A stretch of 64,000 bases of DNA from the IMG/VR virus record IMGVR_UViG_3300021964_000036, positions 1 through 64,000 of that record; one strand, given 5' to 3'. Under the pieces are notes generated by a model, which was not told the origin of the DNA, ran no database searches, and saw nothing but the letters and a program-made list of their open reading frames with translations. A program made the translations under genes and the position numbers. The DNA comes from a virus. This document shows positions 2 through 6,748 of this stretch, piece after piece (the first letter of the stretch is position 1; the number at the start of each line of letters is the position of its first letter).

Positions 2-645
2 GGAGCACAAGGAGCTCAAGGAGCACAAGGAGCACAGGGAGCTAAAGGATCTAATGGTTCTTCAGGAACATCGGGTTCTTCCGGATCATCAGGTTCTTCA
101 GGTTCTTCAGGATCTAGTGGGTCATCTGGATCTTCGGGAGCTCAAGGAGCTCAAGGAGCTCAAGGAGCTCAAGGAGCTCAAGGAGCTAAAGGAGCAGAAG
201 GTGCTCAGGGAGCACAAGGAGCACAAGGGGCTAAAGGATCTAATGGTTCTTCTGGTACTTCTGGAGCACAAGGAGCACAAGGAGCACAAGGTGCACAGGG
301 TGCTAAAGGGTCACAAGGAGCACAAGGAGCACAAGGAGCACAAGGAGCTAAAGGTTCTAACGGTTCTTCCGGTACTTCTGGAGCACAAGGTGCTCAAGGA
401 GCACAAGGAGCACAAGGAGCTAAAGGTTCTAACGGTTCTTCCGGTACTTCTGGAGCACAAGGTGCTCAAGGAGCACAAGGAGCACAAGGAGCACAAGGTG
501 CTCAAGGAGCACAAGGAGCTAAGGGATCACAAGGATCACAAGGAGCACAAGGAGCTCAAGGAGCACAAGGAGCTAAGGGATCACAAGGAGCACAAGGAGC
601 TAAAGGTTCCCAAGGAGCACAAGGAGCACAAGGATCTGCTGGTCC
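2..645 (+). repeat. 9-nt Gly-X-Y coding repeats (ggagcacaa/ggagctcaa) with a tandem 72-nt duplication at ~344-487
   Basis: Directly visible tandem repeats. Confidence 0.9.
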
Positions 646-814
646 TACATCTTTAACATGTGGTTTTGGTTGTGAATCTACCCCAGCGGGTAGCCCATTC
701 TTCTATTATGGTATAAGTGGTGATCAATACATGGGAGAGCCTCACACTTGGTTCCAGGTATTCTGTTCTTCTACCGGTCTTACGTACAACTTCCCCGGAT
801 ACATATGTGGATAA
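2..814 (+). CDS. Collagen-like (Gly-X-Y) fibre protein, 3' part (5' truncated by window)
   Basis: Frame starting at nt 2 reads GAQ/GAK/GSN/GSS/GTS triplets to ~645, then a short Cys-containing C-terminal domain ending NFPGYICG-TAA (812-814); absent from ORF track because its start lies outside the window. Confidence 0.9.
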   Translation, partial: GAQGAQGAQGAQGAKGSNGSSGTSGSSGSSGSSGSSGSSGSSGSSGAQGAQGAQGAQGAQGAKGAEGAQGAQGAQGAKGSNGSSGTSGAQGAQGAQGAQGAKGSQGAQGAQGAQGAKGSNGSSGTSGAQGAQGAQGAQGAKGSNGSSGTSGAQGAQGAQGAQGAQGAQGAQGAKGSQGSQGAQGAQGAQGAKGSQGAQGAKGSQGAQGAQGSAGPTSLTCGFGCESTPAGSPFFYYGISGDQYMGEPHTWFQVFCSSTGLTYNFPGYICG

Positions 815-835
815 TACCTTAATTAAACAAATTTA

Positions 836-1102
836 ATGAATAAGCCGGTACCACAAATAAAGATGTCTATTTTTGAGTTGGGTCGTAGTATAATAGGAAG
901 GGATGATATTACATCGGTTAAAATCATAGATAGGGATGGTAATGTTATCGAAAGTCATGAGTATAAGTCCAACGAGAAAGATGTTATTCCGAGTGTGGTG
1001 TTTTCGATTTCTGATGTACTGAGTCCACAACAACAAGTGAGTGTGGCTAGTCAAGAATTCCTTTCTTCTGTTTTAGAACCAAAATTTCCCGGAATGATAT
1101 AA
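836..1102 (+). CDS. Hypothetical protein
   Basis: 88-aa ORF filling the gap, A-rich leader. Confidence 0.65.
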   Translation: MNKPVPQIKMSIFELGRSIIGRDDITSVKIIDRDGNVIESHEYKSNEKDVIPSVVFSISDVLSPQQQVSVASQEFLSSVLEPKFPGMI

Positions 1103-1108
1103 TTTCAG

Positions 1109-1135
1109 GAAACCTTTGTAGTTAATGCTGTATAA
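1109..1135 (+). promoter_or_regulatory. Putative middle (ECF-type) promoter GAAAC-N17-TATAA
   Basis: One of 9 intergenic copies of G(A/G)AAC-N17/18-TA(T/A/C)AA. Confidence 0.65.
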
Positions 1136-4225: not shown

Positions 4226-4235
4226 ATAAAATCAT

Positions 4236-4514
4236 ATGGAAAACAATCAAGTAAAAATTACAACCGAGGAGCTTGAAAAAGTAAGCACCTTGAGAAATGA
4301 GATCTTAGAAAACGTTGAATCGATAGGTAGGCTTAATATAAGGAAGCACTTTCTTGTCAAAGAACTAGAGCCAATCGAAGCAACCCTTATTTCATTACTT
4401 CAGAAGTCTGAAGATTTGGACACACAGGAGAAAAATGTAATCGACGAAATCATACAGAAGTATGGCGAGGGGCAACTGAACTTTGAAACTGGCATTTACA
4501 CTAAAGAAAAATAA
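4236..4514 (+). CDS. Hypothetical coiled-coil protein
   Basis: Heptad-like helix, ends KYGEGQLNFETG. Confidence 0.7.
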   Translation: MENNQVKITTEELEKVSTLRNEILENVESIGRLNIRKHFLVKELEPIEATLISLLQKSEDLDTQEKNVIDEIIQKYGEGQLNFETGIYTKEK

Positions 4515-4517
4515 ACG

Positions 4518-5567
4518 ATGAAAGAAATCGAGGCTTTAAGAAGAACTAAATATGAGTTGATTAGGACAGTAAATTCAATTCAACAAACGCTAGACGAGAA
4601 GACTGGCGGAAAGCCTCGTATTCTTTTTATAGCCCCACACCTTTCTACTGGTGGTATGCCTCAGTACCTTTATAAAAAAATAGAATCTTTTAATGAAGGT
4701 GCAGAGGTTTATTGTATTCAGTATAGCAATACTGCTGAAGCTTATGTTGTTCAAAGAGATAGAATCAAGGAAAAAATAGGATCAAGGTTCCATTGCTTGG
4801 GGAATGATAAAACTGAGATTCTAACCCTCATCGAAAAGATATGTCCTGATGTTATACACTTTGATGACTTTGTAGAATTCTTTATCAATTCCTCGATAAT
4901 TGACAAAATATACGATCCTAATAGGCCTTATTACATCGTGGAAACGTGTCATAGCTCCAACGTAGATCCCAGCGATAAGGTTTATTGTCCTGATAAATTT
5001 GTGATGGTAAACGAGTGGATGTGTGATAAGTTTAGCAACTTGGGGGTGCCAGTCGATATCTTAGAATATCCCATAGAAAATTTAATTAGACCAGATAGGG
5101 ACACGTCATTAGAAGAACTTGGGCTAGATCCAGCAAAAAAACACATTATCAATATTGGTCTTTTTACACCAGGTAAAAACCAAGGGGAGCTTATTGAATA
5201 TGCTAGGGAGCTGGAAGATCACCCAATTCAGTTTCATTTTATAGGTAATACAGCTCCAAACTTCCAAAGTTATTGGGAACCTCTATTGGAAAATCTTCCA
5301 AAAAACTGTAAAATTTGGGGAGAAAGAAAGGATACTGATAATTTTTACAAGTGTGCAGATCTTTTTGTTTTTACATCCAATTGGGAACTAAACCCAATTG
5401 TAATTAAAGAAACCCTTTCTTGGAATTTACCAATTCTAATGAGAAGATTGGGCCCTTATAAGGATTCGTATGATGATAATCCACTTGTGACGTACTTGAC
5501 CCCAGGGGGTGCATTCGATGACAGAGAGGATAACATACAAAAAATAAAAGATATACTTAGTTTATAA
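4518..5567 (+). CDS. GT4 (GT-B) glycosyltransferase
   Basis: HLSTGGMPQY, GLFTPGKNQ, ADLFVFTSNWELNPIVIKE. Confidence 0.85.
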   Translation: MKEIEALRRTKYELIRTVNSIQQTLDEKTGGKPRILFIAPHLSTGGMPQYLYKKIESFNEGAEVYCIQYSNTAEAYVVQRDRIKEKIGSRFHCLGNDKTEILTLIEKICPDVIHFDDFVEFFINSSIIDKIYDPNRPYYIVETCHSSNVDPSDKVYCPDKFVMVNEWMCDKFSNLGVPVDILEYPIENLIRPDRDTSLEELGLDPAKKHIINIGLFTPGKNQGELIEYARELEDHPIQFHFIGNTAPNFQSYWEPLLENLPKNCKIWGERKDTDNFYKCADLFVFTSNWELNPIVIKETLSWNLPILMRRLGPYKDSYDDNPLVTYLTPGGAFDDREDNIQKIKDILSL

Positions 5568-6748
5568 TGAATAAAAGAGGTTTAGAGGTTTATACCGATT
5601 TGAAGAAATCTAAATCTGTAAGATTTAGACATCCCATAACTTTTGATTTCTATTTTGATTATGGACCCAAGGCTGATTGTATAGGACCGAGTAATGCTAA
5701 GCCTTGTATGATAAAATTCAAAGATCTTGACCATGATAGGTACGCTTATAATGGTGAAACTTCCCCGGGATTGTATACACAGTTGTATAGAAAGTGGTAT
5801 ACTAACTGGCGTCTAGAGGCATTCGACGGTGATGATTTAATTTTTCAGAAAGACCTTGATGATTTATTAATGGGAGGTAAGGTTTGTATTTCAATTGATA
5901 GCAGTTCTTTAGGAGATACCCTGGCCTGGATGCCCGTGGTAGAGAGGTTCAGGGTAAAATACGGCTGTGATTTGTATGCTACAACCTTTTGGAATGAACT
6001 ATTAGCCAACTATTACCCAGATATAAGATTTAAACCACCAGGTTACAGGGAATCACAAACTAATGCTACTATTGGTGTTGGTTGGTATGATGAGGATGAT
6101 CGGGATAAACACAAAAGAGATCCAAGAACAATATCTCTCCAACAAGTTGCTGGTGACATTTTGGGAATAGAGGTTGAAGAAGATGTATTAAATGATAATG
6201 TGCCACTAACTATAAGAAATTCTAAGCCCACCATCGACGGTAAATATGTTTGTATTGCTATGGATTCCACTGCCAATGCAAAGCACTGGCACTATGACGG
6301 CGGATGGCAAAAGATTGTAGACTATTTAAACTCAATAGGTTATAAAGTTGTTGTTGTACAGAAACAGGCAACGGGTCTGTCTGGTATTATCGACAAGACC
6401 GGTGACATAGATATCCTTCAAAGGGCAATTGACATTTATCATTCTGATTTCTTTATTGGTATCGGTTCTGGGTTAAGTTGGCTTGCTTGGTCCTTACATA
6501 AACCTGTAATTATGATTTCTGGATTTTCTGATCCTTTCTGTGAGTTTTCTACCAAAAATTATAGGATCATAAACAGGGACGTGTGTCACGGATGCTTCAG
6601 CGATCCTTCGATTAAGTTTGATAAGGGAGACTGGAACTGGTGTCCAAGGCTTAAGGACACGGAAAGAATGTTTGAATGTACCAAAACTATTACTCCAGAA
6701 GTTGTGCAAAAAAATATCGAAGCCCTTATCATCGATCACCTATCCTAA
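5567..6748 (+). CDS. Aah/TibC-like protein O-heptosyltransferase (GT9-related)
   Basis: SLGDTLAWMP, FIGIGSGLSWLAW, ISGFS and four-Cys motif CHGC...WCPR...FECTK typical of iron-containing autotransporter heptosyltransferases. Confidence 0.8.
   Translation: MNKRGLEVYTDLKKSKSVRFRHPITFDFYFDYGPKADCIGPSNAKPCMIKFKDLDHDRYAYNGETSPGLYTQLYRKWYTNWRLEAFDGDDLIFQKDLDDLLMGGKVCISIDSSSLGDTLAWMPVVERFRVKYGCDLYATTFWNELLANYYPDIRFKPPGYRESQTNATIGVGWYDEDDRDKHKRDPRTISLQQVAGDILGIEVEEDVLNDNVPLTIRNSKPTIDGKYVCIAMDSTANAKHWHYDGGWQKIVDYLNSIGYKVVVVQKQATGLSGIIDKTGDIDILQRAIDIYHSDFFIGIGSGLSWLAWSLHKPVIMISGFSDPFCEFSTKNYRIINRDVCHGCFSDPSIKFDKGDWNWCPRLKDTERMFECTKTITPEVVQKNIEALIIDHLS

Follow-up and report, generated by a model that had tools for sequence, protein, structure and literature searches.

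A predicted TibC/Aah-family glycosylation operon beside a collagen-like fibre gene in a phage with T4-type genes

What is modified by a set of glycosyltransferases that a phage encodes immediately beside the gene for a collagen-like fibre? The question is raised by the first 64,000 nucleotides (here called the window) of the 82,491-bp IMG/VR virus contig IMGVR_UViG_3300021964_000036. Positions 1162 to 6748 of this window hold an operon for an Fe(II)/2-oxoglutarate (2OG) oxygenase, two family 2 glycosyltransferases (GT2), a protein of 92 amino acids (aa), a family 4 glycosyltransferase (GT4) and an enzyme of the TibC/Aah (BAHT) family. An original prediction, made from the sequence without database searches, had proposed that the phage builds a heptose-primed O-glycan coat on its own fibre or virion. 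Judging from sequence comparisons across phages, we consider it probable that the operon serves to O-glycosylate, in the cytoplasm, the collagen-like fibre that the phage itself encodes.

The enzyme that closes the operon scored 280.2 bits (E 2.4e-83; cut-off 200) on the protein O-heptosyltransferase model TIGR04414, versus 21.3 bits on TIGR02193 (lipopolysaccharide [LPS] HepI), 17.5 on RfaC and 13.7 on RfaQ. The comparison of autotransporter heptosyltransferase and LPS family 9 (GT9) profiles suggested with the original prediction was thus decided in favour of the TibC family. The TibC structure in the PDB (4rap) aligned over residues 29-380 (E 1.4e-57), and residues were mapped by hand on this alignment, their roles being taken from the available passages of the TibC structure paper (PMC4358343). 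The catalytic Asp-110 of TibC corresponds to D117 in the window enzyme and is Asp in 42/42 phage representatives. Thr-226 and Lys-230, which bind the beta-phosphate, Arg-286, which recognises N1 of adenine and keeps guanine out, and Trp-305, which contacts heptose O4, correspond to T235, K239, R286 and W305. The Thr, Lys and Trp equivalents are kept in all 42 representatives, Arg-286 in only 12, that of the window included. The iron ligands of TibC (the iron-finger residues Cys-339, Cys-342, Cys-358 and Cys-370) are C340, C343, C359 and C371 here, and all four are present in every representative. At the stereoselectivity position (Pro-300 in TibC, Ser-294 in Aah) the window enzyme carries Gly. 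The Aah/TibC motifs and four Cys seen in the original prediction are therefore borne out by profile, structure alignment and residue mapping alike, and by its sequence the last operon enzyme belongs to the TibC/Aah family and is catalytically intact. The donor is probably an ADP-activated heptose.

The autotransporter beta-domain (PF03797) was found neither on the contig itself (0/1) nor in any of 43 TibC-bearing phage records. The enzyme is therefore filed here as a member of the sequence family with another acceptor and not as an autotransporter heptosyltransferase. The TibC-like family is large, with 3570 clusters at E <=1e-10 in a metagenomic collection of 5.8 billion proteins. Many of these clusters carry the JGI automatic name "autotransporter strand-loop-strand O-heptosyltransferase," and the members listed include fusions with FkbM and GT4 domains.

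The proposed glycan acceptor, a candidate by its sequence, is the collagen-like protein encoded at the start of the contig. Its 72 visible G-X-Y triplets include GAQ (36), GSS (11), GAK (9), GSQ (5), GSN (4) and GTS (4). The fragment has the uninterrupted Gly-X-Y periodicity of the collagen triple-helix repeat (PF01391), and its proline-free repeat may form a triple helix. Across the 82.5-kb contig, 78 open reading frames (ORFs) reach 80 aa, and it is the sole one of them with collagen periodicity or at least 20% Ser+Thr. The collagen-like fibre with GSS and GTS tracts that the original prediction described is thus upheld by both Pfam and the triplet counts. The protein ends in a 54-aa Cys-containing domain (...NFPGYICG) that is conserved in relatives. 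An origin of the collagen frame as a repeat artefact was considered and rejected, as Pfam backs the frame, which runs on into this unique conserved domain, and as each alternative frame over the repeat either stops sooner, none of them beyond 656, or is a short antisense ORF. Nearly all contigs of the lineage (our loci L002-L019 and L204) begin within the collagen-like gene, so that short-read assemblies evidently break in the repeat, and the N terminus of the fibre is never seen.

Only an 88-aa ORF and the glycosylation operon lie between the fibre gene and the gene for the neck-like protein, and the position of the fibre gene would match what we take to be that of the whisker gene wac in the T4 gene order. 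The 88-aa ORF had no family match in the profile libraries scanned. In relatives, homologues that are 32-34% identical to it sit in the corresponding place and likewise carry a conserved FPG at the C terminus. The C-terminal motif (F/V/I)PGx(I/V/L) is common to the fibre (...NFPGYICG, 791-814), the 88-aa ORF (...KFPGMI, 1082-1102) and the second GT2, GT2b (...YFPGEI, 4205-4225), and persists in relatives although identity over the rest of these proteins is only 32-82%; it may serve all three as a docking tag.

The arrangement of the window recurs in related phages. IMG/VR, when scanned for the TibC-like protein, gave 163 candidate stretches, of which 162 were confirmed; 80 loci were kept and grouped at 90% TibC identity into 45 lineages, the window's included. 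The relatives L002-L015, with 74-81% identity to the window in the TibC-like protein, retain the complete order (fibre, 88-aa ORF, oxygenase, GT2, GT2, 92-aa ORF, GT4, TibC, neck, terminase, sheath), which argues that it did not arise by chance. Relatives at 61-63% identity are without both GT2s and retain the remainder.

The enzyme is also paired with a particular kind of collagen. A collagen ORF of at least 30 triplets was present within the ±10-kb locus in 27/45 lineages, and in 24 of these 27 at least 50% of the triplets were G[ST][ST]. One further lineage, L019 (a 230-kb contig, 85% complete), has its collagen ORF at the very beginning of the contig, immediately upstream of the locus. As a control, 80 phage collagen loci were retrieved with a generic Gly-X-Y codon pattern; their triplets were mostly GPQ, GAT, GPT and GDK, and 3/80 were dominated by Ser/Thr. 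The difference between 24/27 and 3/80 is large (Fisher p 1.5e-17, a value that overstates independence, as the lineages share ancestry). The signal spans enzymes that are only 35-45% identical to one another. The longest collagen ORFs reach 3195 residues and 955 triplets. The collagen helix rises by ~0.29 nm per residue, and at this textbook value a 955-triplet ORF would make a fibre ~0.8 micrometres long.

The pairing was also seen when the search was reversed. TibC-family genes were present in 12/44 whole records with a G[ST][ST]x8 pattern (10 of them above cut-off) and in 3/6 pattern-bearing records that were at least 90% complete. Records with non-Ser/Thr collagens held none (0/44 versus 12/44, Fisher p 2e-4, with lineages that are not independent, with the pattern-bearing records being an arbitrary sample of loci and with six loci left out of each set). 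Of 23 long TibC-bearing records, 15 hold the pattern, and 2426 of 3040 matches fall within the ±10-kb locus, which makes up 7-33% of the record; the reversed pattern gave no match in any long TibC-bearing record. When 80 short pattern loci were searched with tblastn, only 5 of them gave TibC, as little DNA flanks the pattern in these; whole records were therefore searched instead.

Several features of the collagen ORFs point to tail fibres. All six collagen ORFs scanned against Pfam matched Collagen, and two of the six also contained a Peptidase_S74 intramolecular chaperone, a domain typical of tail fibres and spikes. Ten non-collagen termini compared with PHROGs gave three tail-fibre or baseplate-connector matches, three matches to families of unknown function and four without any match.

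Some loci showed other repeats. In L202 (G052:C1, 1-4878; 54% TibC identity), GSS/GTS collagen is followed by ~1380 residues of ~15-residue Asn/Thr/Gly-rich repeats (NTAVG...NTTG). YadA-type head repeats were considered for these and dropped, as Pfam returned only Collagen (E <=0.001) and the PDB nothing (E <=0.01). In L063, L057, L025 and other TibC-bearing loci that have no collagen ORF, long Pro/Thr mucin-like linkers (TPTQTPT...) often adjoin the enzyme. A conserved ~125-aa protein and a class I methyltransferase also occur in collagen-less TibC loci.

The remaining genes of the operon are compatible with a soluble, protein-directed system. The operon begins after a 59-nt gap, and its intergenic spacing of -8 to +10 nt leaves room for translational coupling. 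None of its proteins has a hydrophobic segment (maximum 19-residue Kyte-Doolittle mean <=1.1), so that all are predicted to be cytoplasmic, and the operon contains no flippase, polymerase or polyprenyl-phosphate/lipid-carrier transferase. The 2OG oxygenase, two GT2s and GT4 of the original prediction were all recovered by Pfam in their places; the operon as then drawn left out the conserved 92-aa ORF at 4236-4514.

Genes for homologues of the GT4 protein were found in 61/80 related loci and 34/45 lineages, and GT4 and TibC domains are fused in Microcystis phage Mel-JY01 and in P0236. GT4 is thus a conserved and at times fused partner of the TibC-like enzyme. No informative PDB match was obtained for the GT4 protein itself. 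The best PDB match of the first GT2 was a beta-1,3-GlcNAc transferase (6h1j, 7.4e-5). For GT2b, the best named matches were weak and confined to the GT2 domain: the peptide S-glycosyltransferase SunS (NCBIfam, 1.5e-4) and GmaR (PDB, 6.2e-5), which is a flagellin glycosyltransferase. The nearest named relatives of GT2b, weak as the matches are, therefore act on proteins or peptides.

The first gene of the operon encodes a DUF6445 protein. Its AlphaFold2 model (pLDDT 92.1) matched SptF, OGFOD1, PHD2, Pseudomonas putida P4H, HygX and KanJ in Foldseek (E ~1e-5, TMq 0.5-0.63), and all top PDB matches listed were Fe(II)/2OG dioxygenases; on this predicted structure, the DUF6445 protein is a 2OG oxygenase by fold. 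H84, D86 and H167 are nearly invariant (>=90%) and R181 is invariant, and from the His-x-Asp...His motif we infer that they are the metal and 2OG ligands. The PHROG label "minor coat protein" clashes with this fold and looks like a misnomer. With 3708 homologues at E <=1e-5, of which the best 120 listed are all at least 65% identical, DUF6445 is far more conserved and widespread than the remaining operon genes.

The proposed pathway would begin with the TibC-like enzyme, which would put a sugar on Ser/Thr of the Gly-Ser-Ser and Gly-Thr-Ser triplets of the fibre before its assembly. The donor, ADP-heptose, would come from the host pathway, boosted by a phage heptose kinase encoded at 32644. GT4, the two GT2s and a GT25-like protein encoded at 58479 could then add or extend further sugars, and the 2OG oxygenase might act on protein or on a sugar. 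What results would be a collagen-like fibre that is free of proline and coated with glycans, which may stabilise, stiffen or protect it or confer binding specificity. The fibre as the target, as originally predicted, has good support from comparative genomics, namely by the composition-specific pairing, the tail-fibre domains, the lack of a membrane step and the lack of an autotransporter.

A more far-reaching version of this proposal is tentative and, in our estimate, rather doubtful. It holds that phages widely carry undescribed "glyco-collagen" fibres, made by the TibC family together with GT4 and proline-free (Gly-Ser/Thr-Ser)n proteins of up to ~3000 residues. Dense O-glycans would replace hydroxyproline in these fibres and stabilise a triple helix hundreds of nanometres long, and phage fibres, not bacterial autotransporters, would be the main home of the BAHT family. 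The oxygenase, GT2s and GT25-like enzyme of the window would modify GAK/GAQ triplets as animals and Mimivirus do hydroxylysine.

A number of findings weigh against the fibre as the acceptor. The evidence is wholly genomic, and no fibre of this kind has been seen to carry a glycan. Within the visible part of the window's fibre, G[ST][ST] accounts for 21% of the triplets (15/72) and GAQ and GAK dominate, the rest of the gene lying beyond the contig start. Seventeen of the 45 lineages are without a collagen ORF near the enzyme (18 when only the loci are counted, L019 being the difference), some of these collagen-less lineages carry Pro/Thr mucin-like proteins beside it, and 32/44 records with the repeat pattern are without a TibC-family enzyme. 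The known acceptor of TibC, as given in the available parts of PMC4358343, is a folded beta-helix of strand-loop-strand repeats and not collagen. The same source describes a beta-hairpin thumb (Phe-265, Val-266) through which dimers of TibC assemble into a dodecamer ring; this thumb is 9 residues shorter in the window enzyme, and the loop is short in 36/42 representatives.

The heptose part of the proposal faces objections of its own. The HldE-type kinase reported in the original prediction was recovered by both TIGR02198 and PfkB; its score of 295 bits is below the TIGR02198 cut-off of 345, yet this is by far its best match. It is the sole gene of the ADP-heptose pathway that was found. The genes gmhA, gmhB and hldD and the adenylyltransferase (rfaE domain II), for which the original prediction had suggested a search, were not found on the 82.5-kb contig, which is 29% complete. 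Among related records, gmhA was present in 0/43, adenylyltransferase domain II and gmhB in 0/5 (including the 85%-complete relative), and the kinase in none of four nearly complete TibC-bearing genomes; the complete genome of Mel-JY01 lacks both the kinase and gmhA. The phage is therefore unable to make ADP-heptose alone, and across much of the family another sugar nucleotide may act as donor.

For the lineage of the window, sequence most likely points to ADP-heptose as the donor. Lineages that keep Arg-286 hold 7/9 kinase-bearing records (7/12 versus 2/32, p 6e-4, the residue being unknown in 2 of the 32, and the 12 Arg lineages being, as it appears from gene order and identity, largely one clade and hence not independent). 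A gmhA-like gene (189 bits) is present in a Saprospirales metagenome-assembled genome (MAG) that holds a 78%-identical phage contig. Five records (G049, G050, G051, G057 and G060, from which loci L014, L016, L017, L025 and L028 derive) have shortened kinase-like ORFs of ~250-265 aa. These align with the model as two separate segments (positions 5-65 and 94-304), a pattern that suggests a kinase variant with an internal deletion.

Transcription offers a further point against the fibre. The motif GAAAC-N16/17-STAHAA occurs eight times in the window versus 0.83 expected (0/100 shuffles reach 8), at 1109, 16550, 21837, 27869, 35055, 39834, 54426 and 58434, always on the plus strand and directly upstream of genes. 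Behind it lie, among others, the operon, the clamp loader gene and the genes at 54473 and 58479. It is a probable phage-specific promoter class, as judged from its sequence and placement, that links the operon with replication genes and two distant glycosyltransferase-like genes. A second motif, ATATATAAA, occurs seven times versus 2.26 expected (0/100 shuffles reach 7) and is a candidate late promoter; its copies (6767, 24867, 42322, 45886, 46543, 57307 and 61848, all on the plus strand) include several that precede structural genes. The operon bears the motif of replication genes and not that of the neck gene, and seems to belong to a transcription class that is distinct from, and probably earlier than, that of the neck gene. 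This would fit enzymes that are made before their substrate, and equally the modification of the host.

Modification of the host surface is in fact the chief alternative, one that the original prediction also named and that we regard as unlikely. The glycosyltransferases would alter the LPS core, O-antigen, capsule or a surface protein of the host, for instance to block superinfection, and their place beside the fibre gene would reflect a shared hypervariable region. Fibre and glycosyltransferase genes do co-locate in hypervariable regions of T4-like phages, and glycosyltransferase clusters in T4-like and jumbo phages have been read as modifiers of host O-antigen in the passages available from two publications (PMC7029224, PMC7824862). 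The promoter-like motif shared with replication genes agrees with such a role, GT2 and GT4 also weakly resemble the polysaccharide enzymes TuaG, WcaA and EpsE, and a heptose kinase would serve LPS core synthesis too. However, the protein O-heptosyltransferase model gives the TibC-like enzyme 280 bits and the LPS HepI model 21, and the operon is without a flippase, polymerase, polyprenyl-phosphate transferase or hydrophobic segment. Mere co-location does not predict a pairing specific to Ser/Thr collagen (24/27 versus 3/80; 12/44 versus 0/44), and no phage record searched contained an autotransporter.

Virion proteins other than the fibre, or in addition to it, could also be the target, which we hold to be distinctly improbable. 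Candidates would be the enlarged 850-aa neck protein, sheath insertions, head decoration or non-collagen fibre repeats. The neck, terminase and sheath genes lie directly downstream of the operon, but they are conserved only in the lineage of the window, and the pairing of enzyme and repeat reaches far beyond it. Non-collagen acceptors are suggested by the beta-helix strand-loop-strand repeats that TibC modifies (available passages of PMC4358343), by the Asn/Thr/Gly-rich repeats into which the L202 fibre runs and by the Pro/Thr mucin-like proteins beside the enzyme in collagen-less lineages. Against these, the cross-lineage signal tracks the collagen repeat itself, and the fibre excepted, no ORF on the 82.5-kb contig has at least 20% Ser+Thr or G[ST][ST] runs. 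A non-protein target (glycosylated hypermodified DNA bases or a small glycoconjugate, with the 2OG oxygenase acting on base or sugar) is highly improbable: phage glycosyltransferases and 2OG/TET-type oxygenases do hypermodify DNA, the oxygenase matches include the sugar-acting KanJ and HygX, and the promoter-like motif is shared with replication genes, but no TibC-family member acting on DNA is known to us, the oxygenase matches are not TET/JBP, and both the Ser/Thr collagen pairing and the GT4-TibC fusions beside fibre genes would be left unexplained.

The two distant glycosyltransferase-like genes named in the original prediction fared differently. The product of the gene at 58479 had no Pfam, NCBIfam or PHROG match of its own and was placed through its homologues: 6/32 of these match Pfam GT25 (PF01755), and 18/30 ESM Atlas feature matches are GT25. 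Seven longer homologues that were scanned contained GT4 (4 of them), GT9 (3), FkbM methyltransferase (3), Methyltransf_24 (1) and GT2 (1) domains, so that domain fusions elsewhere appear to link this protein to the glycosylation system. The gene at 54473 gave no hidden Markov model match and stands as a structural lead only. An asparagine-synthase-type amidotransferase is encoded between these two genes, at 55890-57290 (TIGR01536, 213 bits; cut-off 267), and may belong to a second sugar-modification cluster.

Table 1. Features of the window that bear on the proposed glycosylation system.
Feature	Coordinates	Strand	Basis or remark
Collagen-like fibre gene, 3' end	2..814	+	270 codons, open at contig start; Pfam Collagen E 3.4e-36
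88-aa ORF, candidate fibre assembly factor (inferred)	836..1102	+	Starts 21 nt past fibre gene; ends FPGMI
Promoter-like motif GAAAC-N16-GTATAA	1109..1135	+	27 nt upstream of the first gene of the operon
Fe(II)/2-oxoglutarate oxygenase, DUF6445 (predicted)	1162..1740	+	PF20043 4.7e-14
GT2 (first)	1741..3027	+	PF00535 2.5e-12; N-terminal ~110 aa without family assignment
GT2b	3020..4225	+	PF13704 2.8e-7; ends YFPGEI
92-aa accessory protein	4236..4514	+	No family match; homologues beside TibC-like genes in 27 loci, 12 lineages
GT4	4518..5567	+	PF00534 1.1e-11; stop codon overlaps start of TibC-like gene
TibC/Aah-family (BAHT) predicted protein O-glycosyltransferase	5567..6748	+	TIGR04414 280.2 bits
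ATATATAAA motif	6767..6775	+	Before neck gene (6818); marks downstream operon boundary
HldE/rfaE-domain-I heptose-7-phosphate kinase	32644..33651	+	TIGR02198 295 bits, E 5.5e-88; PfkB 1.2e-27
Possible GT-A-fold protein (lead)	54473..55405	+	ESM Atlas neighbours in GT2 and GT34 clusters, TM 0.63-0.66
GT25-like domain protein	58479..59147	+	Profile of 32 homologues versus PDB GT25 protein 8xc8, 5.9e-4

The phage itself carries structural and replication genes of T4 type, among them a neck-like protein, large terminase, sheath, DNA ligase, clamp loader and two portal genes. The latter are full-length T4-type portal (gp20) genes in tandem (29401-31020 and 31031-32632; PF07230 1.8e-58 and 1.2e-63). 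The CheckV completeness of 29% for 82.5 kb implies a full genome of ~280 kb. The terminase is at most 39% identical to that of any of 50,697 phage records; it matches best those of metagenomic huge phages and, among cultured phages, that of Sphingomonas phage PAU, at 35% identity. A megablast search of window positions 800-6800 against the same 50,697 records gave no match, tblastn of the TibC-like protein against phage records found it in four records only, and a protein scan of genome contigs with the TibC-like enzyme yielded two loci only. A 70-kb contig binned in the Saprospirales (Bacteroidota) MAG encodes a TibC-like protein 78% identical to that of the window, a weak hint at a Bacteroidota host. 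A lineage of jumbo phages from aquatic habitats, the "moraphages," has been described as having hosts among the Bacteroidota and four glycosyltransferase orthogroups in its core (PMC12619734, in the passages available). The phage of the window may be related to them, which would fit its size of ~280 kb, the hint at Bacteroidota and its several glycosyltransferase genes. The words "collagen" and "heptos" are absent from the passages of PMC12619734 that were searched.

Among known systems, the closest parallels are TibC-TibA and Aah-AIDA-I of Escherichia coli (PDB 4RAP/4RB4; PMC4358343, available passages). The window enzyme belongs to the same family and shares its catalytic Asp, binding residues and four-Cys iron finger; it is likewise a predicted soluble cytoplasmic enzyme whose gene adjoins that of a long, repetitive, Ser-rich fibrous surface protein. 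In contrast to the E. coli systems, its gene lies in a phage without an autotransporter, and the likely acceptor is a proline-free collagen-like repeat and not a beta-helix. The phage enzymes also differ in their shortened thumb, in having GT4, GT25-like and methyltransferase domains as partners or fused to them, and in the Gly that replaces Pro-300/Ser-294.

Virion glycosylation of mycobacteriophages offers a parallel in that phage glycosyltransferases encoded in or near structural genes modify the phage's own virion proteins (Freeman et al. 2023, as cited in PMC12619734). The acceptors there differ, being the C termini of capsid and tail-tube subunits, and neither a TibC-family enzyme nor a collagen acceptor is mentioned in the available passages of PMC12619734. 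In the literature searched, no paper was found that links BAHT enzymes to phage collagen-like proteins.

To our knowledge, phage-encoded virion glycosylation has been shown experimentally in only a few systems. Glycosylated collagen-like surface fibres are known from Bacillus (BclA), from Mimivirus, whose fibril collagens are modified by the hydroxylase-glycosyltransferase L230, and from animal collagen (Hyl-Gal-Glc). All share collagen repeats at a particle surface and dedicated glycosyltransferases, and the viral and animal cases use a 2OG oxygenase with a GT25-type enzyme. The window resembles the latter two in encoding a 2OG oxygenase, a GT25-like protein and GAK triplets. The enzymes of these systems nevertheless belong to other families, none of them BAHT, and hydroxylation of the phage fibre is pure conjecture. 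Soluble enzymes of the GT4 and GT2 families also act on repetitive proteins in other settings: GtfA/GtfB (GT4) glycosylate serine-rich-repeat adhesins, and GmaR and SunS (GT2) flagellin or peptides, the modification of Ser/Thr (or Cys) taking place in the cytoplasm before export or assembly. The window differs from these in that only the GT2 domain is similar, and weakly so (E 1e-4 to 6e-5), and in having neither a GtfB-like partner nor a secretion system.

The same pairing of enzyme and repeat is present in a cultured phage. Microcystis phage Mel-JY01 (L203, PP395634.1, 190 kb) encodes a 1227-residue protein in which GT4 is joined to a C-terminal TibC domain (TIGR04414, 317 bits). Directly upstream of this fusion lies a plus-strand ORF of at least 1016 residues of GSS/GTS/GTR triplets, and more GTS/GSS ORFs lie just downstream. 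In place of these collagen-like ORFs (1-3052 and 9152-9986, plus strand), the record calls minus-strand coding sequences with Pro/Glu/Val repeats (1-651, 739-2298 and 9361-9898), so that the GSS/GTS ORFs of Mel-JY01 appear to be misannotated in GenBank. The "cytidylyltransferase like protein" of this phage had no NCBIfam match, and no paper on Mel-JY01 was found in the literature searched. As Mel-JY01 has the same pairing, the proposal that a TibC-family enzyme glycosylates the phage's own collagen-like fibre can be tested directly in a cultured phage.

If this proposal is true, an enzyme family that is known from enteric-pathogen adhesins alone would mainly serve phages in decorating their fibres. 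Many phages would then bear very long, sugar-coated collagen-like fibres, which would affect how they recognise hosts, how stable their particles are, how they adhere to mucus or particles, and how the immune system recognises them. Proline-free collagen and hyperglycosylation by a single enzyme would, in addition, be tools for protein engineering.

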